A program made the translations under genes and the position numbers. Of a stretch of 64,000 nt of DNA, positions 15,504 to 40,875 are shown one piece after another (position 1 is the stretch's first letter; each line of letters starts with the position of its first letter). Source of the stretch: a virus. Location of the stretch: IMG/VR virus record IMGVR_UViG_3300045988_108496, positions 1-64,000 of that record; one strand, given 5' to 3'. The notes beneath the pieces were generated by a model, which did not search any database, had not been told where the DNA came from, and saw only the letters and a program-made list of their open reading frames with translations.

Positions 15504-18500
15504 ATGACACAAGCAACAACCAGAGACTATTGGATTTCGCCCTCGGCATTGCACATCGAACTAAATGCCCTTGGCAATCCTGACTATATTCAGGCATCGT
15601 GCATAAGCGGTGCCCAAATTCTTGTGTACGTTAAGAATATTATCGGCTTCGATGCTGGACACAATTACCGGCGCTGGTCCTTGCAGGCAGTTCCAACGGT
15701 ATTCAACACCCACACCGAGAAATACGTTTATGCCGCCATCCCTCGCGACATGACGCTCACGGCTTCGGCATTGATTGTGTTCCCGTCTGAGCAGGTAGAC
15801 ATCTACGGCAAGAACGAAAAAGAAGAGCAGATAGGCGATGAGAAGTACTACTACATCTTTCTGCAAGGTGTCATCACCTCGTCGGGTGATAATGGCACGG
15901 TGCAGCGCGATTGGAAGGAAGGCTGCAGAATCGTATATGGCTACTTGTCCTCAGACGAAGCAATCAGTGCCATTCCCTACGAAAGCGAGTGGTATAACTA
16001 TGCTTCGGTAGACGGAATCGTAACATTCCTCAAGGACATCACGATGAAGGCGGGCTCTAAATTTCGCCAACTTTTCGCAAAGACTCTCACTATTGTGTCC
16101 GGAGGACATATCGCTTTTGAAGGACAAGGCGAGGTGAATGGAGTAGCCACAACGGGCACGCAGTTTGAGTCTACCGACAAGATTGTAACTCCGAAGTTTC
16201 TTGACGATAATGCGCTGTCAAAAGTAAAACAGGATGTCGCGCAGAAACTTATCCGTTTTTTGGAAGGTATCGCATTCGGCGAACAGAGCGACAATAACCC
16301 TCTCGGCATCTCCTCTGACGGAATCGCCACACTCAAAGAGGTTGTGTCAGCTGCGTTCCGTTCGGGTGCGCTCGGCTCTGGTTTTAAGCTTGGTGATTAC
16401 AACGGAAGTGGTGACAGTTACTTGGAGGTAGACCGCCTGCTTGTGCGCAAGGCGGCGGAGTTCGTAAGGCTCGTAATCCGAGAGTTGCAAAGCGTAGGTG
16501 GTGAGATTGTTCTGTCGCCTGCTGCCATGAAGATTAGCAATGTGGTCTATTTCGAGAAAGGTGTGTATCTTCCCGAATATGAAGCTCTTCCTCTGCGCTA
16601 CAATGTTTACCGCTGCTACTTCTCGCAGAAGAAAGGCGACGAAGAGATTGAGAACCAGTTCGTCGAGGACGACCTTGTGCGCTGTCAGACGTTCAACGTC
16701 AAGGAGGGCGTGAATGAGAACGTGAAGAACAGATACTACTGGCGTAAGGTGTACAAGGTAGGCAAAGATTTCATTGATGTGCTTGCTGATTTCTGCGATA
16801 CTGGCAGCGATATTCCGCAGGCAGGTGACGAGCTTGTACAGATGGGCAATACGACGGACACGGCACGCCAGTCAGTCGTTGTTCTATCGGCATACGGAGC
16901 GGATGCGCCATCGTTAAAGATGTACGAAGGCGTAGATAGCTACTCGTTAGAAAACAAGGAGGTCTTTGTCCTATCGCGTTCCGAGATGTTCGCCATAGCC
17001 GATAAGTTTAGGTTCGTTACGCGCAAGGCTAATGGCGAGATAGAAAGCACGCAGTCGTTTGCGGAGCTTGTGATGTCCGTGGATGGGCTCAGAACAACGG
17101 TCAAAAGAAACAAAGAAGAGCTTGACGACGAGATAAAAAGCACGCAGTCGCAGATAACACAGACCGCAAATGATATAAGAACAGAGGTTAGGAGAGACTA
17201 CTCTACCAAGAAGGATGTAAACGACCAAATAGCAACTGTTAGCTCTTCTATAACACAGACCGCTACACAGATAGCGATGAAGGTGGGCTACACTCTTGCC
17301 GAGCGACGTAACCTGCTCGTCGGCTCGTTGTTCCGCAAGCAAGGCGAGGGTTTCTTTCTTCTGCGCTCTAAGATATATCGCACGTCGGCGCATGAGGGTG
17401 CTAATGTGATATTCGCACCAGAAGCTAAAGCAGGCGGTGTGCAATGGGGTGGAGCGGCGAACTCTCACAACATACACGTCACCAAGGGCAAGACGTACAC
17501 GCTGGCTTTCTGGGTACGCACGAAGTCTGCCAGAGTAGAAATTGTGGGCGAGACGATATGGCATAGCTCGGCAACCGACACGTCGCGACCAAGTGGATAT
17601 ACCGGTCCTAACGGTAGTGCGAATTTAGGCGGCGTAACGATAACGCCAAGCAACGGATGGTATCTCTACCAAAAAACCTTTACCGTGGCAGCGAACGCCC
17701 CTTATGAGTGGATTTCCGTGGCGTGTCTAAAAGCTAACGCATCTACTGCGAGTCAGCAGGTGTACATCGCCCACCCTATCCTCATAGAGGGTACGGCGGA
17801 GGACTTTGTGTGTTGGAGCGCATCGCCTGACGACTACGACTACATCGGGGGCAACTTGCTTGACAACACGCGCACGTTTAATAAGACAGGCAATCTGATG
17901 CGAATGGATGCGTCAGTGGTAACTAACGGGTCGTACAACAACGGATGCTCGGTAATATATGCAAACGCTGCCTCCAAATACATTGAGATGGCGCAGTGGA
18001 GCGTTAGCTCTATCATCAAGAAAAATGAGGACTACATATTATCCTTTATGGCAAAAGGTTCCGGCAGCATCGACGCATACATGTGGAGTGGTTCTAATCT
18101 AAGCATATTCGCCGAGGACAGCGAGCGCGATACAACAACGAGCAACGCCGACGGAGGTCGTCGCTTCTCTCTCACAAGCGAGTGGAAGCGTTATTGGGTA
18201 CACTGGCGTTCTGAGGGCACTGGCATACCTAATTATGTATTAATCCGTTGTTCGCAAGGCGGAAAGGCGTGGGTGACAATGCCGAAGTTGGAGGTGGGTG
18301 CAACGCCTACCGATTGGATAGAGGGCAAGAGTGGTTTTATCGAAGACAGTGGCATTGCAGCCAAACTACTGCGCACAGGCTTAGACGTCGAAAATGGCAA
18401 GATAACGGCAACGGCGGATAAGTTCGAGGTACGCAACAACAGCGGTGAGACAACGGCAAGCGTTAATGAGAAAGGTTTGTTAGAGGTTGGCGCAGGAGTT

Positions 18501-19028
18501 TTTTCGGGACTAATCCGTAAGAAGATGACGGAGATAACGCCTGAGAACTTAAAGGACTATGTCACCGACCAAGCAGCACTGGCTCTCGGAAATATCCAGA
18601 TTGACTTCGAGAAGACCGGCTGCTTTGTGAAGTTTACGGGTAACATAAAGGCGATGACTAAGTCTGATGTTGTTATTGTTCCACCTTTCTACATGCCCAA
18701 CCATACAAACTGGGGCAAACTGAGCACAAAGACGGTTTACGAGGCTATGGCGTATGTCGGACAGACCATTATTGTTGTCAATGATAGTGATACAGAAATG
18801 ACTACAATCGGATATACGAGTATGGATTTCGACCATGCCAGCAAATATTTTGGCAGAGGGCAAGGCGCGATGATGACCTGCGTTGTCAATAAAGGTCAGA
18901 ATAGTTGCACTGTGGTATGGAACGGCAGACAGTTACCGTTTTCAAGCCCTGCACTTGAAAGCGAGTCCGACCCGACAAGTACTGCTGAAGACCCGACAGC
19001 AACAGAAGAAGAACAACCAAAAGAATAA
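15504..19028 (+). CDS. tail fibre / receptor-binding-type protein
   Basis: 1174 aa. Carries a fibre-like coiled segment (STQSQITQTANDIRTEV...SSSITQTATQIAMKV) followed by beta-rich carbohydrate-binding-like modules. Confidence 0.6.
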   Translation: MTQATTRDYWISPSALHIELNALGNPDYIQASCISGAQILVYVKNIIGFDAGHNYRRWSLQAVPTVFNTHTEKYVYAAIPRDMTLTASALIVFPSEQVDIYGKNEKEEQIGDEKYYYIFLQGVITSSGDNGTVQRDWKEGCRIVYGYLSSDEAISAIPYESEWYNYASVDGIVTFLKDITMKAGSKFRQLFAKTLTIVSGGHIAFEGQGEVNGVATTGTQFESTDKIVTPKFLDDNALSKVKQDVAQKLIRFLEGIAFGEQSDNNPLGISSDGIATLKEVVSAAFRSGALGSGFKLGDYNGSGDSYLEVDRLLVRKAAEFVRLVIRELQSVGGEIVLSPAAMKISNVVYFEKGVYLPEYEALPLRYNVYRCYFSQKKGDEEIENQFVEDDLVRCQTFNVKEGVNENVKNRYYWRKVYKVGKDFIDVLADFCDTGSDIPQAGDELVQMGNTTDTARQSVVVLSAYGADAPSLKMYEGVDSYSLENKEVFVLSRSEMFAIADKFRFVTRKANGEIESTQSFAELVMSVDGLRTTVKRNKEELDDEIKSTQSQITQTANDIRTEVRRDYSTKKDVNDQIATVSSSITQTATQIAMKVGYTLAERRNLLVGSLFRKQGEGFFLLRSKIYRTSAHEGANVIFAPEAKAGGVQWGGAANSHNIHVTKGKTYTLAFWVRTKSARVEIVGETIWHSSATDTSRPSGYTGPNGSANLGGVTITPSNGWYLYQKTFTVAANAPYEWISVACLKANASTASQQVYIAHPILIEGTAEDFVCWSASPDDYDYIGGNLLDNTRTFNKTGNLMRMDASVVTNGSYNNGCSVIYANAASKYIEMAQWSVSSIIKKNEDYILSFMAKGSGSIDAYMWSGSNLSIFAEDSERDTTTSNADGGRRFSLTSEWKRYWVHWRSEGTGIPNYVLIRCSQGGKAWVTMPKLEVGATPTDWIEGKSGFIEDSGIAAKLLRTGLDVENGKITATADKFEVRNNSGETTASVNEKGLLEVGAGVFSGLIRKKMTEITPENLKDYVTDQAALALGNIQIDFEKTGCFVKFTGNIKAMTKSDVVIVPPFYMPNHTNWGKLSTKTVYEAMAYVGQTIIVVNDSDTEMTTIGYTSMDFDHASKYFGRGQGAMMTCVVNKGQNSCTVVWNGRQLPFSSPALESESDPTSTAEDPTATEEEQPKE

Positions 19029-19031
19029 GAT

Positions 19032-19142
19032 ATGAAGAAAATAGTTAGAGGCAATGATTTTACGTTGCGCATACCCGTAAAAAAGATAGTCAATGGTGAA
19101 CAGGTAGCTTTTCCGCGCCTGCCTGCACGGACATCGTTGTGA
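19032..19142 (+). CDS. 36-codon ORF, probable true 5' end of the downstream fibre gene
   Basis: ATG 4 nt after the upstream stop (MKKIVRGNDFTLRIPVKKIVNGEQVAF...). Ends at TGA 19140-19142, overlapping the -1 frame that continues as 19139..21391. Confidence 0.35.
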   Translation: MKKIVRGNDFTLRIPVKKIVNGEQVAFPRLPARTSL

Positions 19143-21391
19143 ATATCGTGAACCAGTATCGGCGCGTGGCTCTGAGCTACACTATCGACACGACGGAGGA
19201 CAATATCATCAATGCGCGTGTAGAGGGCGACGCTGTATCAGTGGGCACATACGCCCTCGAAGTGCGAGGTAAGATTTTCGGCAATGACTGGCGCAGCAAG
19301 GAGTACGAGCAGTTTGCCATCGTAGACAACAACGCTTCGGGCGACACAGCGTTCAACGGCGAGCTTATCGAGGGCGAGGACTCCGTGGAGATGAACACGG
19401 CACTTGTTATCCTGCCTCCGACGGCAGAACTGACGCAGCTTATAACCGACGCAAACACAGCTATTGAAACGGCGAAGCAGACGGACGCAACGCTCAAGGC
19501 TAACGAGAGTGAGCGCACGGAGGCGGAACAGCAGCGAGCGTCAGCAGAAGCCGCTCGCGTGTCAGCAGAAAATAAGCGCAGTGAGAGTGAGGAAGTTCGC
19601 CATGCAGCGGAGACAGAGCGCATGAGCAATGAGGACGCTCGAAAGTCAGCAGAGGCGCAGCGTGCCAATGCTGAGAGCGAGCGTATCGAAGCTGAAAAGA
19701 CACGCACAGCGAACGAATCCGCACGTGTCGCAGCGGAGAAGCAGAGAGCGACTACTTTTGCCGAGCTTACGGCGAACGTAGACACGGCTGTCAGCAAGGC
19801 GAACAGCGCAGCAAGTGCAGCAAACACGGCTACTGACAAGGCAAATGCAGAGGAGGGCAAGCGTGCGGAAGCCGAAAATCTGCGCACGGAAGCAGAAGCT
19901 ACACGCAAGCAGAACGAAAACACGCGGCTGGAGGCTGAAACCGAGCGTGTACGACAAGAAGCAGCGAGAGAAACTGCGGAAGCTACTCGCCAGAACGCAG
20001 AGACGGAGCGAGAAAAAGCTGATGCCGAGCGTGAGAAACGTGTGTCCGAAGCAATATCCGGCACGTCTTCTGCCGCCAAAACCGCCACTGACGCAGCAGC
20101 AGTGGCAACAGAGACAGCCAAGAAAGCTATGGTTGCGACTACAGAAGCAGAGAGGGTAAACGCCGAGCTAAGGGGCAACGTGCTCGTAGTGACCGATAGA
20201 AATGGCGATGTCAGCACTCTTGACTTTGAGCAGTGGGACTTGGAGGAACGAGTGAATATCACCATTACGACATCTGTTGCTGGAGTAAGCGTGAAAGGCG
20301 TGGCGGTAAACGTCTTCCTTAACGACGCTTCGGTGTTCACGAAATACACCACGGATGCTGACGGCAAGGTGTCGTTCACAATTCCGAGAGGAACGATGTA
20401 CAGAATAGCTTTCCAGGAGTTGAAAGGCTGTGACCCACTTCCTTCTCTCACTTACACCGCCGCACTGAGAGTACGCGACATCAACGTGGAGTATAAGCCG
20501 ATAAGCGACGAGCGAGCCTCTGTGGTAGTAACGATAGACAAAGCGGAGAACGGAAGTGTAAGTCCGTTCGGAGGCGTGGCAGTGACCTGCGCCATTGCAA
20601 ACGGCGACACAATAACAACGGAAACCGACAGCGAAGGAAAGGTGACGTTCCGCGTACCATACAACAAGAAGTACAAGATTACCGCAGCCCAAAAAGATGG
20701 CTATTATGCTTTTCGCGGCATATATGAGAAGAGTAATGTGGCAGATGTGGCAGAACATAATCTTTACTTCCACTACTACCCTACAACGTCGGGCGTGTTC
20801 ATTCTTGACGCTACAGGCGCACAATATACGGCAGATGAATGGCAGGCGGCTGGCAAGAACGCGGAAGAGGCAGTCCTCATAAAACTCGTGACGCAGAACC
20901 TCGCTAATGGCAACAACTGCTTCGGCTTCTCACCCGCAGCCTTGCAAGCCGGCTATCCAAACAAGCAGTGGTGTACACAGAATACGCAGTTCAACAACAT
21001 TCCATTAAACGGTAACAATGTAAAAGATGCACTGTACTACGATGGCGTAAAACAGTCAAAACTTGTGCGCGAAGAAGCGGAAGAGCGTGGATTGTCTATA
21101 CCTCTATTCACTTACGCCTATGAGCAGACGGTGGATTTGGCGGATGTTCAGCTACATGGCTTTATTTTGACGATTGGACAGATGACGGAAGCGAATGTGA
21201 ACAAAATTCTTGTGAACGAGGTGGTAAAGATGCTGCATGGCGGTAATGCAAAATTATTCAGTTCTTTATTCTCTCGATTGAAATGGACATCAACGCAGTA
21301 CAGTGTCGTAGATGCTTGGGCTTTTAGTTCCAGTTCGGGCGGTCACGTCAAGTCGGACAGCAGCCTGGCTCTGCCGGTCTTCGCTTGTTAA
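19139..21391 (+). CDS. tail fibre protein with Ala/Glu/Arg coiled coil
   Basis: 750 aa with a GTG start in the track. Long AE..R repeat coiled coil. Two CarboxypepD_reg-like beta modules (DADGKVSFTIPRG, DSEGKVTFRVPYN). The C-terminus resembles the DUF1566/Lcl type. Confidence 0.6.
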   Translation: MNIVNQYRRVALSYTIDTTEDNIINARVEGDAVSVGTYALEVRGKIFGNDWRSKEYEQFAIVDNNASGDTAFNGELIEGEDSVEMNTALVILPPTAELTQLITDANTAIETAKQTDATLKANESERTEAEQQRASAEAARVSAENKRSESEEVRHAAETERMSNEDARKSAEAQRANAESERIEAEKTRTANESARVAAEKQRATTFAELTANVDTAVSKANSAASAANTATDKANAEEGKRAEAENLRTEAEATRKQNENTRLEAETERVRQEAARETAEATRQNAETEREKADAEREKRVSEAISGTSSAAKTATDAAAVATETAKKAMVATTEAERVNAELRGNVLVVTDRNGDVSTLDFEQWDLEERVNITITTSVAGVSVKGVAVNVFLNDASVFTKYTTDADGKVSFTIPRGTMYRIAFQELKGCDPLPSLTYTAALRVRDINVEYKPISDERASVVVTIDKAENGSVSPFGGVAVTCAIANGDTITTETDSEGKVTFRVPYNKKYKITAAQKDGYYAFRGIYEKSNVADVAEHNLYFHYYPTTSGVFILDATGAQYTADEWQAAGKNAEEAVLIKLVTQNLANGNNCFGFSPAALQAGYPNKQWCTQNTQFNNIPLNGNNVKDALYYDGVKQSKLVREEAEERGLSIPLFTYAYEQTVDLADVQLHGFILTIGQMTEANVNKILVNEVVKMLHGGNAKLFSSLFSRLKWTSTQYSVVDAWAFSSSSGGHVKSDSSLALPVFAC

Positions 21392-21452: not shown

Positions 21453-22052
21453 ATGAAGAAAACTATTGGTTTTGTCCGCACGTTCATCCCTGCGGATTTG
21501 TTTAAAAAGGAATATGCGTTGGGAGGTCTAACCATTTATCACATCGACGAGCAGTTGAATGTTGAGATGAACGCATACGAGTGTTGGGAGTGTTCGGTAC
21601 GGAGTGGCGAATACACGCAGGACGAGGTTATGGCTGCGTTCGAGGAGTTTAAGGCAAAGCTCGCAGCATCGGAGCTTGCAACTGCGAAGGCGCAGAAAAT
21701 AGCGGAGATAGATGCCTACGACACGTCAGACGCAGTGAATAGCTTCTTGGTGGACGGCACTAAAATGTGGCTCGACAAGGCGACACGCGTCGGTCTTATG
21801 AACTCCACTACTATCGCTCAAAGCTCTGGGTTGGAAAAGGTCACACTGTGGTTTGGTGATACGCAACTAATGCTCACCTGCGACAAGGCGATAAGCCTAC
21901 TCTCTGCCATTGAGATGTACGCTGTCCAGTGCTTTGACACTACGGCAAGACATAAAGCAGCAATAGGTAATCTGACAACCATTGAAGAGGTTGAGAAGTA
22001 TGACATCACAGCAGGCTACCCCGAGAGATTGGAAATAACAACATACGATTAA
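21453..22052 (+). CDS. DUF4376-like protein (possible fibre assembly factor)
   Basis: 199 aa. AKAQKIAEIDAYDTSDAVNSF...WLDKATRVGL...IEMYAVQCF matches my memory of the DUF4376 pattern. Lies directly after the fibre genes. Confidence 0.4.
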   Translation: MKKTIGFVRTFIPADLFKKEYALGGLTIYHIDEQLNVEMNAYECWECSVRSGEYTQDEVMAAFEEFKAKLAASELATAKAQKIAEIDAYDTSDAVNSFLVDGTKMWLDKATRVGLMNSTTIAQSSGLEKVTLWFGDTQLMLTCDKAISLLSAIEMYAVQCFDTTARHKAAIGNLTTIEEVEKYDITAGYPERLEITTYD

Positions 22053-35481: not shown

Positions 35482-37080
35482 ATGGCTAAAATTAAGAATT
35501 TTGAGGATTATTGCGCTTTGGTGGACGAAGTAAAGGTGCATGATTATAAGTATTTTGCACAGAACGCCCCCTCTATAAGCGACGAGGAATATGATGCTCT
35601 TTACTTCGCTTTGCAGGAATATGAAGACGCGCATCCGGATGATATACTGAAAGACTCACCTACCCAGCGGTGCTACAGCGAGAACGGCAACGGCAAGCGC
35701 ACTGTTGCGCGTCGCACGGCGTGCCTCTCGATGAAGAAGCTGCATGATGCCAAGTCGGTAGTGAAATACCTGAGAGCGCAGCAGCGCACTGCCAATATCA
35801 GCAGTCAGGGCGCGAAGGTAGATATAGAGTGGAAGTTCGACGGCGAGACCGTGAGTCTTGTGTATCGCCGCGGCTCGCTCTCGGAAGCTACCTACGGACA
35901 TGGCAAAGAGTTGTACGGCATCGACTGCCTGGAACATATAAAGCATGTTCAAGGCGTGCCTGTCCAGGTGGACGTATGGAGCCAGTACGACCGAGTGGAG
36001 GTGAGAGGTGAGGTGATCATCTCGCTTGAGGAGTTTGCCCGTTATAGCAAGGCTGGCAAATCGCCCCGTTCTACGAGTAACGGCATCATGGCGAAGAAAG
36101 TGGCTGTAAAGGACGAGTGCAAGCGTCTGGAGTTTCATCCCTTCCGCCTCATTATGGACGGCGTGATAAGACACACGGCTGCTATGCAGGCTCTTGAGCG
36201 TAATGGCTTTAAGACTTCGGGCTTCGTGTCGGCTCTCAATCTTGAGAAAACGGATGCCGAACTGGAGCAGGACATTGAGAACATCGTGTGCTCTGCCGAG
36301 GTGGAGCGTGAGTCGCTGCCCTACCCTACCGACGGTCTTGTGTTCAAGTTCGACAACTACGACTATTACGACCGTATAGGACAGACCGATCATGACGCAA
36401 AGTATAATTGCGCTTTTAAGTTTCGACCGGTGTTTAAGGCCGTAACCACATATCGCGGATACCATACTACGGTAGGCGAAAAGACTGGCAAGGTGACGTA
36501 TGTAGCCGACTTTGACGAGGTGGAAATGAACGGACACCGTTTCGCCCATGCCAACTGCGGAAGCGAGCGCACGTTCCTCCAGAAAGACCTTGTGGCAGGT
36601 TGCAAGATAGAGGTCAGCTTGCACGGCGATGTTATCGTGTGTGTGGATAGAAAGATTGAAGACGAACCGGCTATTGATGAGAACCTTATCATTGAGGAAA
36701 AGCCTATCATTGAGGAAGAATCTATTGCTATTGACGAGGAGCCTCTTGTTATAGACGAATCGGGATTTGTTCATCATCCGGAGCCTCACGTTATAGAGCC
36801 GGATATTTATCAGGATCGGGAGCCGGAAGCAGAGTCGGAGCCTATACCTCAGCTGAAGCCGAAACGTAAGCGTAATTATCCGCAGGTAGGCGAGCCGACG
36901 CTACGAGAGGAACGTGAAGACACGTCGGCAAGGAGAAAGGATGGCAAACTGAGCGTAAAGAAGGTATTCGCCGGTGCGCTTGCTGTACTCATGTCAGCGT
37001 CAATGTTCGTAGTTGTGGTAGCATTCGCCGGAGCCGCCCTATTCTTTCTGCCGATGATGGGAGATGTTGCAAAGAAGTGA
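35482..37080 (+). CDS. ligA: NAD-dependent DNA ligase (adenylation + OB core) with acidic linker and C-terminal TM helix
   Basis: HDYKYFAQNAPSISDEEYDALY...HPDDILKDSPTQR matches the LigA domain Ia/N-terminus. KxDG motif EWKFDGETVSLVY. C-terminal VFAGALAVLMSASMFVVVVAFAGAALFFLPMMG. Confidence 0.85.
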   Translation: MAKIKNFEDYCALVDEVKVHDYKYFAQNAPSISDEEYDALYFALQEYEDAHPDDILKDSPTQRCYSENGNGKRTVARRTACLSMKKLHDAKSVVKYLRAQQRTANISSQGAKVDIEWKFDGETVSLVYRRGSLSEATYGHGKELYGIDCLEHIKHVQGVPVQVDVWSQYDRVEVRGEVIISLEEFARYSKAGKSPRSTSNGIMAKKVAVKDECKRLEFHPFRLIMDGVIRHTAAMQALERNGFKTSGFVSALNLEKTDAELEQDIENIVCSAEVERESLPYPTDGLVFKFDNYDYYDRIGQTDHDAKYNCAFKFRPVFKAVTTYRGYHTTVGEKTGKVTYVADFDEVEMNGHRFAHANCGSERTFLQKDLVAGCKIEVSLHGDVIVCVDRKIEDEPAIDENLIIEEKPIIEEESIAIDEEPLVIDESGFVHHPEPHVIEPDIYQDREPEAESEPIPQLKPKRKRNYPQVGEPTLREEREDTSARRKDGKLSVKKVFAGALAVLMSASMFVVVVAFAGAALFFLPMMGDVAKK

Positions 37081-37345
37081 GTTATGTTTTTGTGGAAATG
37101 TGGAAATGTGGAAGTACAGAAATACATAAATACACATTTTCACAAAAACATAAAACAATAAACACACAAACACATCCATACACAAACGCACACACACATA
37201 AATACATATATACATATATACATATATACATGAATAAACAAAGCAACTAACAAATTAATCAACTAACAAAGCAATACACACACAAATACACTTATAAATA
37301 AATTAAGCAATAAATAAATAAACAAATAAATAAACAAATAAATGT
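37081..37345 (+). repeat. G-poor A/C-rich patchwork of microsatellites between ligA and parA
   Basis: GTGGAAAT x3 (37092-37115). ACATATAT x3 (about 37204-37230). CAACTAACAAA x2. AAATAAATAAACAA x2. Inverted repeat GTTATGTTTTTGTG / CACAAAAACATAAAAC. Confidence 0.8.
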
Positions 37346-37459: not shown

Positions 37460-38326
37460 ATGGAAAGACTTAGAGAAGTGCTTGCCTTTGTAAACCACAA
37501 AGGCGGTGTAGGAAAAACAACAACGGTGCAGAGTTTAGCGACCGGATTGCGCCGTTTTGGTAAAGGAAAATTCGGAGTGGATGCCGATGGACGCAAACGC
37601 TTGCCGCGTGTGCTCATTATCGACCTTGACCCGCAGGCGTGTGCCTCGTTCCTCTTCGGATGGAGCGAGACTCAGAACGCAGGTAAGCCTACCGTTTACG
37701 ACGCATTGGTACAGCAAAGCAATTTGCCCGTTTATCAGGTACGTGAGGGAATTTACCTCGCGCCAGCTGCGTCGCAGCTTATATCCATAGAACCGTTTCT
37801 GAATCAGCGGGCATTGCCTCGCAAAGCCCTTTGTAAATTGCTCGCCAAGCCACTGAACGAGTTAGCAGGCACCGAACTGGCAGACGGAGGCGTGAACACC
37901 GTTATGGATGCTTTCGACTACGTGCTTATAGACTGCCCACCGGCTATGTCGTTGCTTACATACAATGCTCTCACAGCCGCTACGAGTGTAGTGCTGCCCG
38001 TGCAGCTCGAAGTGTTGGCAACAAAAGGTATTGCCGAAATCATCAACGCCATCGAGGAAACACGTGAGGATCTTAATCCCGATCTTGACATTCGTGGCTT
38101 GCTGATGGTAATGAGCAACGACCAGACCAACGCCACAAAGGAGTTTAAGGCATATCTCGGCGAAAAGTATCAGGACTATATGTTTGACGCTTATACGCGC
38201 CGCGACACGAAGATGGTCGAAGCGCAAGCTATGCGAGAAGACATCTTTGCTTATGCACCGTATTGCAGGGTAGGGCAGGACTATGAGCGTTTTACCAAGG
38301 AGATAATCAACAGTTTCACTTTTTAA
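37460..38326 (+). CDS. parA: ParA/Soj-type partition ATPase
   Basis: Deviant Walker A FVNHKGGVGKTTT. IIDLDPQ motif. Typical size of 288 aa. Confidence 0.9.
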   Translation: MERLREVLAFVNHKGGVGKTTTVQSLATGLRRFGKGKFGVDADGRKRLPRVLIIDLDPQACASFLFGWSETQNAGKPTVYDALVQQSNLPVYQVREGIYLAPAASQLISIEPFLNQRALPRKALCKLLAKPLNELAGTELADGGVNTVMDAFDYVLIDCPPAMSLLTYNALTAATSVVLPVQLEVLATKGIAEIINAIEETREDLNPDLDIRGLLMVMSNDQTNATKEFKAYLGEKYQDYMFDAYTRRDTKMVEAQAMREDIFAYAPYCRVGQDYERFTKEIINSFTF

Positions 38327-38337
38327 TATTATAGGGT

Positions 38338-38793
38338 ATGGCAAGAGAAATGAAGAAACGAGTTGCGCATTTTGGTCTGGAAAATTCAGACGCTATAGAC
38401 GAGAACGAGCGCATTTTGGAAGCAGGTAGACAGCAGCGTCAGGAGAACAGGGAGAAAAAGGGAAGTGGAGAAGCGGCAGCGAATACTGTCACTGCTTCGT
38501 CCGCAGAAGTTCCGGCGACTGAAAAGCCGACTGTTTCTACAACAACGTCTGAGACCGAGACATCGACAACTATAACTCCTGTAGCAGATCAACCGGCAAC
38601 CACATCATTCAGCAACGATATTGCTGCGAACATGCGTAAGCCGAAGGGTAAGAAGACCGAGAATGGCATCACCATATACGTGCCGATGGAGTATTACGAG
38701 CGTATCGCCTTGATGAAAATGCGCACTGGCGTGCCTATCAAGGATTTGGCGCTACAGGCTGTGATTGAGTTTTTGGACAGAAACAAAATGTAA
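38338..38793 (+). CDS. ribbon-helix-helix partner protein (ParG/omega-like centromere-binding candidate)
   Basis: Disordered N-terminal two-thirds. C-terminal ITIYVPMEYYERIALMKMRTGVPIKDLALQAVIEFLDRN fits a strand-helix-helix. Lies 11 nt after parA. Confidence 0.6.
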   Translation: MAREMKKRVAHFGLENSDAIDENERILEAGRQQRQENREKKGSGEAAANTVTASSAEVPATEKPTVSTTTSETETSTTITPVADQPATTSFSNDIAANMRKPKGKKTENGITIYVPMEYYERIALMKMRTGVPIKDLALQAVIEFLDRNKM

Positions 38794-38947
38794 AATCTAA
38801 AGTCTGATGTACACCGATATGGACAACTTTGAAAAATGCGAGGCGATATTCAACGAGGACTTGTAATATGTAAGGTAAAATCCTACTAAAGTTTTTTACC
38901 TTAAAGTTTACGAAGTCACTACAAAAGTGTGCTGTTTTTGGTTTGTA

Positions 38948-39034
38948 ATACCTACGGATTTGTTTACCAATACCTACGGATTTGTTTACTTAAACCTACG
39001 GATTTGTTTACCAACTCCTGCGTTTTTGTTTACC
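38948..39034 (+). repeat. 4 direct iterons, 22-bp period
   Basis: ATACCTACGGATTTGTTTACC (38948), ATACCTACGGATTTGTTTAC (38970), AAACCTACGGATTTGTTTACC (38992) and the degenerate ACTCCTGCGTTTTTGTTTACC (39014). Confidence 0.9.
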
Positions 39035-39197
39035 TCACTGTAGGTAACTGATTGATAATCAATACGCTCAAAAACCTTAATATAATATAATTATAAACTA
39101 TGGATTTTTCGTTTTGAAAGAATAAAAGAATAGTTTATGTTACATTATATTAAGGGAAATTGGAGGAGTTGAAAATCAACGAGTTAGAGCATACGAA

Positions 39198-39283
39198 GTA
39201 AACAAATATATAGGAGTTGGTAAACAAAAACGTAGGTTTTGATACATAAAAACGTAGGTTTAAGTACATAAAAACGTAGGTTA
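39198..39283 (-). repeat. 4 iterons in inverted orientation, ~22-bp period
   Basis: GTAAACAAATATATAGGAGTT, GTAAACAAAAACGTAGGTTT, ATACATAAAAACGTAGGTTT, GTACATAAAAACGTAGGTTA. The last overlaps the rep ATG at 39283. Confidence 0.9.
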
Positions 39284-40875
39284 TGGCAAAGAAAGCGAAA
39301 AAAGAAGACAATGAAGGCAAACTTCAACATGCCTTGAACGAATTGCGCTGGATAAACACACCTGTCAACTATACATCATACGCTAAAAGCTATTCTCTCA
39401 TACAACAGGACGTTATGCTGTTGGTAAGCGGACGACTGCAAGACCATTTTGCCAAGTTTCTTAACGAACATCGTTATTTAAGCAAGGAACGACCCAATGG
39501 AGGTATAACGAAAGAAGACCTGTTGAAGATGGGACCGATACGTTTGCGCCTGGCTGACTTCGGTATAGACAGCAGCCATTATGACGAGTCGGTAAAGGTG
39601 ATAAACCAAATGAAGAAGATAGAGTTTCATTTACCGCGTTTCGATCCAGAGACAGGACTTAGAAAAGGTGAGGACTATATGCCTATATTCAGCAAGATAT
39701 TTATCCCGAAGAACTTCACATCACGAGAAGGAGAAGATTTCAACTATTCGGGAGACGGAGAAACAAAGATAGACGAGGACGGACAGGAAGTGCGCAAGTT
39801 CCGTCGTGACGGATATATCGAGGTTACAATAAACATTGAGGTGGCAAAAGCCGTGTTTGATATGGCAGACGGATATTTCAATCATCTTGAACGTATCGCC
39901 TATTTCTGCAATTCGGCTTACACGTCACGTCTTTATCTTCTGTTGATGAAGTACGCGAGCAGGGGGCAGATGCACCCTGCTATAGATTATCGTGAGCTGA
40001 AGGAAGCATTGGGTATGTTTAAGGTCGATGTGGAAAAAAGTGAACAACCCGCAAAGGTTGTCACTACTGAGAAATATCAAAAGTTCTCACAGTTCCGCAA
40101 ACAGGTGTTGGACGTGGCACGTGGTGACATGGAGCGACTGTGCGAGGAAAACAAGATAGAGATAATGCTATCGTGCATTGACCCCAACAAAAAAGGCTAT
40201 GAACCTATTTATAGGGGTAGCGTCAAACGAGGCAATCCTGAAAAAATCAAGTTTCATATTAAGCGCACACCGTTGGGCTTGGCGAGAGAATTGGAGTTGC
40301 ATCGTGGTTCGTCAGAAAAACGTTTGTGCGCCAAGTTAATGTCATTATATCCTACGCTCGACGAAGAACGGCTCAAGGCGTTTGTTGCTGACGTTCCCGA
40401 AGACCTTTGGAACGACTTTAAGGCGTATGCCTATAATGGAGTGCCGAAAGCGGTAGAGCAACCGCATAGATGGAATGGCACGGTGGAGGATTTCGTGTTT
40501 TACATTATGGAGCAATGGATAAAACAGCATAGTGTGAAGCATGAAGCCCAGCAGCAGACGTTTGCGTTTGTCGAAGCGGAGGAAGTGAAGCCGAAACCGG
40601 GCGAAAAGGAGTGGCAGAATCTTTTGACCATGCTTGACGGTGAAACAGGCGAGTGGCTGGGTAGTGAGATGTCGGACTTGTTGAAAAAAGTGATGCTTGA
40701 TGATTATGACGGCAAGACTGTCCGGATTATTGCGACTCAGGAGCAGGTGACAGCCATAGAGAATCTATTGGAGAGCAATGTACTACAAGGTAAGTTTAGC
40801 CAATTACTTGGCTATTGCTTTAAGGGCAATAAACGTAAAAAGGTCTGTTTGGATTATAAAAAACTTAACAAATAG
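39283..40875 (+). CDS. replication initiator (Rep, iteron-binding type)
   Basis: 530 aa. The ATG lies inside the last of 8 iterons. SYSLIQQDVMLLVS recalls the Rep_3-type N-terminus. The call rests mainly on iteron context. Confidence 0.65.
   Translation: MAKKAKKEDNEGKLQHALNELRWINTPVNYTSYAKSYSLIQQDVMLLVSGRLQDHFAKFLNEHRYLSKERPNGGITKEDLLKMGPIRLRLADFGIDSSHYDESVKVINQMKKIEFHLPRFDPETGLRKGEDYMPIFSKIFIPKNFTSREGEDFNYSGDGETKIDEDGQEVRKFRRDGYIEVTINIEVAKAVFDMADGYFNHLERIAYFCNSAYTSRLYLLLMKYASRGQMHPAIDYRELKEALGMFKVDVEKSEQPAKVVTTEKYQKFSQFRKQVLDVARGDMERLCEENKIEIMLSCIDPNKKGYEPIYRGSVKRGNPEKIKFHIKRTPLGLARELELHRGSSEKRLCAKLMSLYPTLDEERLKAFVADVPEDLWNDFKAYAYNGVPKAVEQPHRWNGTVEDFVFYIMEQWIKQHSVKHEAQQQTFAFVEAEEVKPKPGEKEWQNLLTMLDGETGEWLGSEMSDLLKKVMLDDYDGKTVRIIATQEQVTAIENLLESNVLQGKFSQLLGYCFKGNKRKKVCLDYKKLNK

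Follow-up and report, generated by a model that had tools for sequence, protein, structure and literature searches.

We analysed a 64,000-nt stretch of DNA, called the window below, which corresponds to positions 1 to 64,000 of the IMG/VR virus record IMGVR_UViG_3300045988_108496. Near 39 kb it contains a candidate origin of replication, placed between an operon for parA and its small partner on one side and the origin's own initiator gene, rep, on the other. Two arrays of repeats (iterons) face each other there across an A+T-rich centre. The features of the region, with positions in the window, are:

38950-39033, plus strand: left iteron array, four units spaced 22 bp apart: three exact copies of ACCTACGGATTTGTTTAC (38950-67, 38972-89, 38994-39011) and a degenerate fourth (39016-33)
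39045-39057, minus strand: left site resembling the consensus of integration host factor (IHF), TATCAATCAGTTA on that strand, an exact match to WATCAANNNNTTR
39064-39165, no strand: A+T-rich centre with an inverted repeat, presumed unwinding element
39174-39186, plus strand: right IHF-consensus-like site, AATCAACGAGTTA, an exact match to WATCAANNNNTTR
39198-39281, minus strand: right iteron array, four units in the orientation opposite to the left array (39198-215, degenerate; 39220-37; 39242-59; 39264-81)
39283-40875, plus strand: rep, encoding a 530-aa initiator

The units of the left array are bipartite, ACCTACG-N4-TGTTTAC, with an 18-bp core whose GTTTAC end faces the centre. An initial annotation of this DNA had proposed four left iterons of 22-bp period, the fourth degenerate, and these were confirmed by the sequence, by a repeat search (four direct copies, 22 bp apart, at 38937-39046) and by Tandem Repeats Finder (38947-39034, period 22, 4.0 copies, score 120). 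The four right iterons of opposite orientation were also recovered, with cores at 39198-39281, as a second 22-bp-spaced family in reverse orientation (39199-39286) in the repeat search and as 4.4 copies of period 22 (39198-39294, score 89) in Tandem Repeats Finder. Allowing up to three mismatches, the iteron 18-mer occurs five times in the window, compared with 0.03 occurrences expected. The direct sites of about 17-22 bp, two helical turns apart and beside rep, that characterize a Rep_3-like replicon are present here as two arrays of four. A solitary iteron-like sequence, CCCTGCGGATTTGTTTAA (three mismatches), is found at 21488-21505, in a tail-fibre-like gene 17 kb from the origin, and may be a chance occurrence.

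The arrays form the outer parts of a larger quasi-palindrome. In the repeat search the 87-nt arms 38950-39036 and 39195-39281 are 76 % complementary, and the best inverted-repeat local alignment of the interval 38700-39500 extends over 38942-39290 with a score of 124, compared with 16.2 ± 2.8 (maximum 24) in 200 dinucleotide shuffles. The symmetry is centred on 39115.5, in agreement with the value near 39115 given in the initial annotation. In the mirror alignment the two halves correspond inward through the innermost iteron variant "CCAACTCCT" and, further inward, through a TAACT..TTGAT..TCAA motif followed by CCTTAATATAAT.TAA.ATAAACTAT, matched in both halves. The right array spans the 85 bp directly upstream of the rep start codon, and the left array begins 157 bp past the stop codon of the partition operon. 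The rep ATG (39283) had been placed inside the last iteron, which is true of the 22-bp repeat unit and not of the 18-bp core, since the ATG begins 1 nt past the end of that core at 39281.

The centre is as A+T-rich as had been described, with 81.5 % A+T at 39075-39155 (99.7th percentile among 80-nt intervals), and it adjoins the iterons as an unwinding element should. Its inverted repeat, 39075-39101 against 39130-39155, has the two mismatches and one indel reported for it; the inner arms 39075-39090 and 39140-39155 match at 94 % in the repeat search, and the repeat consists of TTAATATAATATAA-type repeats of equal polarity on opposite strands. Two short palindromes had also been listed, ATTGATAATCAAT (39051-39063) and GTTGAAAATCAAC (39168-39180). 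Both are present, but neither stands alone: each overlaps an IHF-like site and is part of a longer oriented motif that occurs on both sides, 11-12 bp from the innermost iteron and read toward the iterons. On both strands of the 64-kb window there are four matches to WATCAANNNNTTR, the Escherichia coli IHF consensus, and two of these four are the mirror-oriented origin sites.

The Rep protein can be divided as follows:

Residues ~20-330: tandem winged-helix part, variable between types and specificity-setting
Residues ~341-440: helical domain, conserved between types
Residues ~445-530: KH-like end domain

A profile built from 38 homologues matched the R6K initiator pi (2nra) in the region of its second winged-helix domain (WH2), with an E value of 5.9e-6. 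An AlphaFold model of Rep, with a predicted local distance difference test (pLDDT) score of 78.8, matched pi, RepE54 and a complex of RepE with iteron and single-stranded DNA in Foldseek at template-modelling (TM) scores of 0.64-0.70 relative to the targets (2nra_C: E 1.7e-6, TM 0.67; 1rep_C: TM 0.70; 8aan_A was matched as well), and the matches cover about 310-330 columns. Model and profile agree on two tandem winged-helix domains (WH1-WH2), and the predicted structure groups Rep with the iteron initiators R6K pi and mini-F RepE. With tblastn, RepB-family initiators on Segatella and Prevotella plasmids were found to be 21-32 % identical to Rep, and a search of 50,697 phage records gave no match. 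Rep homologues numbered 408, many of them on 85-102-kb contigs. In a separate model of residues 341-530 (pLDDT 88.6), a disordered linker separates a helical domain from an alpha/beta end domain. The conserved domain (341-440) had no match in Pfam or PDB, and the C-terminus none in Pfam.

The connection between the repeats and Rep is best seen in relatives of the element. Related loci, identified below by L-numbers, include 42 on IMG/VR contigs of 50-102 kb, and relatives with the Rep/iteron specificity of the window are called window type. Compared with L039, which belongs to a sister type (the L036 type), the window DNA is 80-93 % identical through parA, the partner gene and the genes after rep, and 68-82 % identical in rep codons ~345-445, but identity is at random level from ~38940 to 40315, which comprises the iterons, the centre and Rep residues 1-340. 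This pattern indicates that the iterons, the melting-region repeats and the DNA-binding part of Rep were swapped as one cassette. The Rep proteins are correspondingly mosaic, with residues 1-340 and ~445-530 diverged and residues 341-440 ~80 % identical (shared motifs are YPTLD, PEDLW, AYNGVPKAVEQPHRW and MEQWIKQHS); the boundaries are near 40303-40316 and 40616. The repeat motif of the centre is TTAATATAATATAA in the window type and GAATATAGAATATA in the sister type, and thus changes along with the Rep N-domain. The comparison for iteron-Rep covariation that the initial annotation had suggested therefore has an answer: each lineage has its own iterons, and they change with the DNA-binding part of Rep. 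Because the partition protein remains constant while these sequences are exchanged, the repeats appear to be iterons and not a centromere.

The facing arrangement is retained across this diversity. At least ten lineages of the Rep clade, from IMG/VR phage-like contigs, Bacteroidales metagenome-assembled genomes (MAGs) and Segatella plasmids, keep the facing arrays with a lineage-specific repeat sequence that is the same in both arms. In the window type we distinguished 29 origins with 3-4 + 4 iterons, in which half-sites, inner motifs and A+T repeats are invariant and spacers variable. L002 and L050 lack one 22-bp unit of the left array (3+4), and strict 4+4 equality is thus not needed. Other lineages, with the identity of their Rep to that of the window, are:

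L070: Rep 62 % identical; 5+4 iterons; ACCTACC in both arms
L052: Rep 58 %; 4+4
L043: Rep 54 %; 4+4; ACCTCCG in both arms
L036-L042 and L045 (sister, L036 type): Rep 37-40 %; 4 + 3-4; GTCACTACAAAAGTGTGC
L054: Rep 33 %; 4+4; ATCTCCC..TTGTACC
L059: Rep 29 %; 3+3
L063: Rep 28 %; 3+3, at 43-bp spacing

The two-fold symmetry had been called unusual, which is true in comparison with textbook iteron plasmids; inside this Bacteroidales Rep clade it is the rule. L044 (Rep 45 % identical) is an exception: its rep directly follows another gene, the 3 kb on each side of it are free of iteron-like repeats, and the origin of this lineage lies elsewhere or is built otherwise. In L064-L069 (the contigs with P0053 and P0066) independent assemblies stop 45-92 nt upstream of rep, inside the right array. 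Such ends suggest that the repeats or the quasi-palindrome break short-read assemblies, and that origins of this kind are under-represented in metagenome contigs.

The inner motif is the other part of the origin that is kept where the iterons are not. Its core on the left side, CTGATAATCA, is invariant in window-type relatives and is retained also where the iterons are unrelated; together with TGAAAATCAAyGAGTTAGA on the right it is the only conserved island within the otherwise unalignable cassette of the window and L039. The motif recurs at the same distance from the iterons in a Segatella copri plasmid (TTGATTTTCAATAAGTTA) and in L052, L054, L063 and L070. Since it remains constant while element-specific sequences change, its reader is likely to be a host protein. 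Bacteroides has an IHF-like host factor, which is used by CTnDOT.

What was computed here covers the anatomy of the region, its significance against chance, the fold of Rep, a layout that relatives conserve, and iterons that change along with the DNA-binding part of Rep. Together these results make it very probable from sequence that the region is a Rep/iteron origin, as the initial annotation held; the pi/RepE-like initiator, the co-change with constant partition genes and the conserved layout all support that claim. Our fuller interpretation, to which we assign a probability of roughly 0.7, is that a phage-like Prevotella/Segatella element of about 90 kb has its Rep-dependent plasmid-type origin (oriV) at 38950-39281, and that this origin works as proposed below.

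Several results weigh against this interpretation. The Rep3_N model of Pfam (Rep_3, PF01051) scored only 17.7 bits against Rep, below its cut-off of 22.4 (E 0.0047), and NCBIfam RepM scored 27 bits against a cut-off of 250. Some Rep homologues at 41-47 % identity carry PF01051/PF21205, and we regard Rep, judged by its sequence, as a distant relative of Rep_3 and not a curated member. No DnaA box (TTATCCACA, up to one mismatch) is present in 38300-39700, and most studied iteron origins have them. Upstream of rep there is no exact Bacteroidetes -7 box (TAnnTTTG), through which autoregulation might act. The IHF-like sites were scored with the E. coli consensus, and a Prevotella protein with such a preference is assumed. 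The mirror layout is also not universal, since in some relatives (L060) the arrays near rep are in one orientation only. For the end domain of Rep, Foldseek ranked DnaA domain I (4tps, TM 0.60-0.62) and DciA (7ykm) first, but neither match is significant (E 0.28-1.8), and the likeness is a lead only. Cumulative GC skew, finally, climbs steadily across 38-40 kb, from a minimum at ~12-16 kb to a maximum at ~50 kb, with no turning point at the origin; this counts weakly, because skew tracks gene orientation.

Whether both arrays take part in initiation is a separate question. One array with the A+T-rich centre could be the whole origin, the right array serving only for control, as operator of rep and partner in handcuffing or looping, and the symmetry having no role in loading. 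Only 1 nt separates the right array from the rep ATG, and in all phage-like lineages this array adjoins rep, at 0-45 nt. The two sides can be unequal, as in the plasmid of S. copri DSM 18205 (order parA, small gene, 2 + 8 iterons, rep), in a 1+5 arrangement, and in L002 and L050 (3+4). Iterons that serve control at a distance from the origin are familiar from incC and incA of F and P1. The mirror in the window, however, extends inward to the bend-site motif and the A+T-rich repeat halves, more than an operator would require. In a 93-kb S. copri plasmid, rep has no iterons upstream of it, and facing units, 1+1 and 1+5, lie downstream of it with the same inner motifs; facing arrays away from the rep promoter indicate that the mirror layout is a property of the origin and not merely of an operator. 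We consider a right array confined to control rather unlikely, and the operator and origin roles are not exclusive. That both arrays join in initiation as mirror images is our preferred view, held tentatively and at somewhat less than even odds. In L047 (1833-2246, on a 317-kb plasmid of Segatella hominis) 8-bp-period runs ending GTTTAC/TTAAC occur upstream of rep, and the full facing iterons lie downstream of it. These runs consist of the conserved iteron half-site alone, and may be a half-site operator.

From this anatomy we infer a course of events in which binding, bending, strand capture, helicase loading, replication direction and autoregulation would all follow from the layout. Rep monomers would bind the eight bipartite 18-bp iterons, which their 22-bp spacing would place on one face of the helix, in two facing arrays. 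Each half-origin would comprise, from the outside to the centre, iterons, an IHF-like bend site and one half of the melting region, and a host bending protein would fold each Rep-loaded array back onto the centre. Rep could then capture its preferred strand of the melted DNA, as RepE and TrfA do; these initiators bind iteron double-stranded DNA together with one specific strand of the unwinding element, and histone-like proteins help the looping (PMC10602881, PMC4980987). Each half-origin presents the components of that model with equal order and polarity. Since the halves are mirrored and the repeat of the centre has the same polarity on opposite strands, the two arrays would be expected to capture opposite strands. 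Two helicases might in this way be placed in opposite directions, outward, without a DnaA box and perhaps by way of the additional C-terminal domains of Rep. The role of the symmetry would thus be bidirectional firing with two forks. We know of no double-hexamer loading of the bacterial DnaB helicase, and two opposed single loadings are the sensible form of the "double-hexamer" idea. Because the right array covers the 85 bp before the rep start, bound Rep should limit its own synthesis; self-repression by occlusion or as a roadblock is plausible. Pairing of array with array, within or between molecules, could limit copy number as in other iteron plasmids.

A quasi-palindrome of this size could also act through DNA structure, as a cruciform, a single-strand hairpin origin, or a site of telomere resolution or packaging. 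As single-stranded DNA, 38942-39290 is predicted to fold into one long hairpin of -62.5 kcal/mol, compared with -28.2 ± 3.6 kcal/mol for shuffled sequences (z = -9.5). Among the 29 distinct window-type origins, however, the covariation score was 0.044 both for the real alignment and for its shuffles, the pairs changed on both sides numbered 7 against 6.4 expected, and variable positions mostly break pairing. This lack of excess compensatory change suggests that the arms are conserved for the binding sites they contain rather than as a stem. Between the arms of the centre, complementarity reaches only 73 % with no perfect palindrome, and the perfect or near-perfect central palindrome of N15-type telomere resolution is absent. 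Rfam gave no match at E <= 1, and an RNA element is unsupported. We consider a structural role of this kind highly improbable.

The partition genes that precede the origin are its neighbours and not part of it:

37115-37343, no strand: candidate centromere upstream of parA, on the basis of position
37460-38326, plus strand: parA, partition ATPase (Pfam AAA_31, 5.7e-37; NCBIfam ParA/RepA partition families)
38338-38793, plus strand: small gene after parA, 151 aa, probable centromere-binding partner

The partner protein has no match in Pfam or NCBIfam. Its C-terminal ~45 residues are ribbon-helix-helix-like, with a weak match to ORF56 of pRN1 (2k9i, E 0.18). Small partition proteins of the ribbon-helix-helix kind bind short repeats in arrays, and the facing arrays begin close (157 bp) to the partition operon; both points could be taken to mean that the arrays are the centromere (parS) of this ParA system, bound by the product of 38338-38793. 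We rejected this assignment. The C-terminal DNA-binding part of the partner is identical in the window and L039 (one residue further upstream differs) and the arrays are wholly different, and L038 and L041 have a different partner yet L039-type arrays. The arrays follow the N-domain of Rep, whereas the repeats of a type Ib centromere would follow the centromere-binding protein, and the same origin design is present in one plasmid region without an adjacent parA. A better candidate exists upstream of parA, where 37091-37343 is of low complexity and contains ~15 copies of an 8-bp unit (TACATAAA / ACACAAAC) at 37115-37236, followed by an ATAA-type array at 37294-37343. From its position, this 8-bp array may be the partition centromere, and there is very little chance that the iterons are.

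The remainder of the window indicates what kind of element the origin serves. PHROG tail and virion families match 15504-19028, 19139-21391 and 21453-22052, and one tail-protein domain is shared with tail proteins of Bacteroides phages. Other genes encode a beta-clamp, an NAD-dependent ligase, methyltransferases and a protein resembling 3'-phosphoadenosine 5'-phosphosulfate (PAPS) reductase. The NAD-dependent DNA-ligase-like protein (35482-37080) has adenylation and OB domains together with a hydrophobic C-terminal segment and a tail that is long, acidic and rich in repeats, which is unusual for a ligase. In the window we identified no capsid, portal or convincing terminase (one terminase candidate has a weak match, E 4.9e-4, and nothing in PDB), and ~27 kb of the element lie outside it. 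PDB sequence searches of three large open reading frames in the window gave no match. Close relatives are binned with Prevotella MAGs, and no near-identical DNA is present in PLSDB plasmids or INPHARED phages. The initial annotation had compared the locus with theta plasmids; the replicon is no plain theta plasmid but an element of about 90 kb that is classed as viral in IMG/VR and has tail-like proteins. A phage-plasmid in the manner of P1 would combine virion genes with genes for plasmid replication and partition; rep and parA are clear, the virion side is represented by these tail and virion matches, and the element is probably a ~90-kb phage-plasmid of gut Prevotella/Segatella.

In such an element the origin might serve lytic or general phage replication, like lambda ori and O, instead of maintenance of a plasmid prophage. 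The contigs are viral in IMG/VR, the window has tail-like proteins, a sliding clamp and a ligase, no second Rep gene was found in it, and lambdoid O proteins, too, typically exchange the part that sets their specificity. The parA operon directly beside the origin argues otherwise, as does the clustering of Rep with initiators of true Segatella/Prevotella plasmids that share the origin design, and arrays of 22-bp iterons served by a pi/RepE-like Rep are the hallmark of low-copy plasmid control. A purely phage function is improbable in our judgement, and the two uses could coexist.

Iterons of the other specificity type occur just outside the arrays in both types:

38914-38934, plus strand: single sister-type iteron, AGTCACTACAAAAGTGTGCTG, directly left of the resident array of the window
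L036-L042, L045 and L071-L082: inverted pair of window-type iterons, ~40-80 nt left of the iteron arrays

The single site matches the L036-type consensus exactly, with 0 chance matches expected, and is nearly invariant in the 29 distinct window-type origins, although both of its flanks are variable. In every L036-type locus (20 locus entries) an inverted pair with perfectly matching arms, GGTAAACAAAAmCGTAGGTTT-N14-16-AAACCTACGkTTTTGTTTAC, lies left of the resident array; the two arms change together and carry the same G/T variant. The ~15-nt spacer of the pair is found in both orientations (AGACTTTTAAGGTAC and GTACCTTAAAGTCT; L040 compared with L041, L036 with L038), which points to flipping, or to gene conversion, across this small palindrome. 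The pair is in no window-type locus. At its place these loci (window 38860-38915 compared with L001-L035) show at least three differing deletion junctions, CCTTAA[A/T]GTTTACGAAGTCAC, GGTGTGCGAAGTCAC and TTTTTACCAAGTCAC, all ending at the L036-type iteron 38914-38934; on sequence, they look like independent deletions of own-type iterons outside the origin. The two Rep types are together on no IMG/VR contig, and the partition protein tracks neither cross-type site. Conservation of the foreign sites like that of resident iterons, despite the deletion junctions in their flanks, is the basis for a speculative and, we think, unlikely reading in which two specificity types share one backbone and each keeps its rival's iterons as decoys or handcuffs against the Rep of a co-infecting element. 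The foreign iterons would titrate or pair with the rival Rep and cause one-sided incompatibility, a weapon or sensor at the level of replication. It would be simpler to read the foreign iterons as scars left by recombination or as weak auxiliary sites of the resident Rep.

Among known systems the closest class is that of the pi/RepE/TrfA/RepA-type iteron origins (R6K gamma ori, mini-F ori2, RK2 oriV, pPS10, pSC101), which share with the window a tandem winged-helix Rep, 22-bp-spaced iterons beside rep with an adjoining A+T-rich unwinding region, and an array near the rep start that suggests self-repression. A bend site beside the iterons, as is probably present here, is known from pSC101 and R6K (PMC4980987). 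The class has one directional block beside the melting region and, before rep, an inverted pair of half-iterons as control element, whereas here two equal arrays face each other across the melting region and the element before rep is a full array. The origin also differs in the absence of a DnaA box, the Rep3_N score below cut-off and the ~200 extra C-terminal residues of Rep. It stands apart from this class by its mirrored plan of two arrays and by the two domains added to Rep.

P1 (oriR/RepA, incC/incA, ParAB) likewise has a phage-like genome with an iteron/Rep replicon beside a ParA system, and its iterons, which serve in control, occur in both orientations. The P1 arrays flank repA, whereas those of the window flank the melting region; oriR needs DnaA boxes, the host phylum differs, and there is no sequence relationship. 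The plasmid-prophage lifestyle of P1 has been summarised (PMC10983915). The initiator described in the crAssphage phage-plasmid paper is RepL, not this Rep family. Among the closest systems are also the Segatella/Prevotella RepB-family plasmids (S. copri DSM 18205, NZ_CP085934; HDE06, NZ_CP137558), whose Rep is 28-32 % identical. They share the ..TGTTTACC iteron half-site, a TGAWWATCA..AGTTA inner motif and arrays that face around an A+T-rich stretch, and NZ_CP085934 has the gene order parA, small gene, ori, rep of the window. They differ in unequal iterons (2+8, 1+5, 1+1) with extra units downstream of rep, in a Rep of ~410-430 aa without the C-terminal domains found here, and in the lack of phage genes. 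We found these plasmid origins only in pipeline annotation, with no description in the literature, and likewise found no published description of facing or inverted iteron arrays or of Prevotella or Bacteroides iteron origins.

Opposed initiator assemblies are otherwise known from unrelated systems. At archaeal origin recognition box (ORB) elements and the cores of SV40 and papillomavirus, the sites face each other across the melting region in the manner seen here; in E. coli oriC that region is at one edge. The oriC Left and Right DnaA subcomplexes, of opposite polarity, load two helicases for bidirectional replication (PMC12818906). The initiators of these origins (the AAA+ proteins DnaA and Orc1, and superfamily 3 helicases) are unrelated to Rep, and the likeness would be one of geometry. 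In lambdoid phages the N-terminal part of O reads the iterons and is exchanged together with them, and the conserved part presumably contacts the replication machinery; a modular initiator is thus swapped with its iterons between similar genomes, as with Rep. The lambda iterons differ in lying inside the O gene, each a palindrome bound by a dimer, and the protein fold differs from that of Rep.

The relatives of the element amount to a natural swap experiment that assigns specificity for iterons and melting region to the first ~340 residues of Rep, and the conserved helical domain is the probable contact to the replication machinery. The mirror design survives full turnover of the iterons, and it hints at how winged-helix Reps could set up two forks without DnaA boxes. 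Origin and rep together (~38.9-40.9 kb) are a compact candidate replicon native to Prevotella/Segatella, abundant gut bacteria with very few genetic tools, in which the specificity variants would give mutually compatible vectors. In the Bacteroidota, the finding also brings to light a widespread family of phage-like elements that carry genes for plasmid maintenance.

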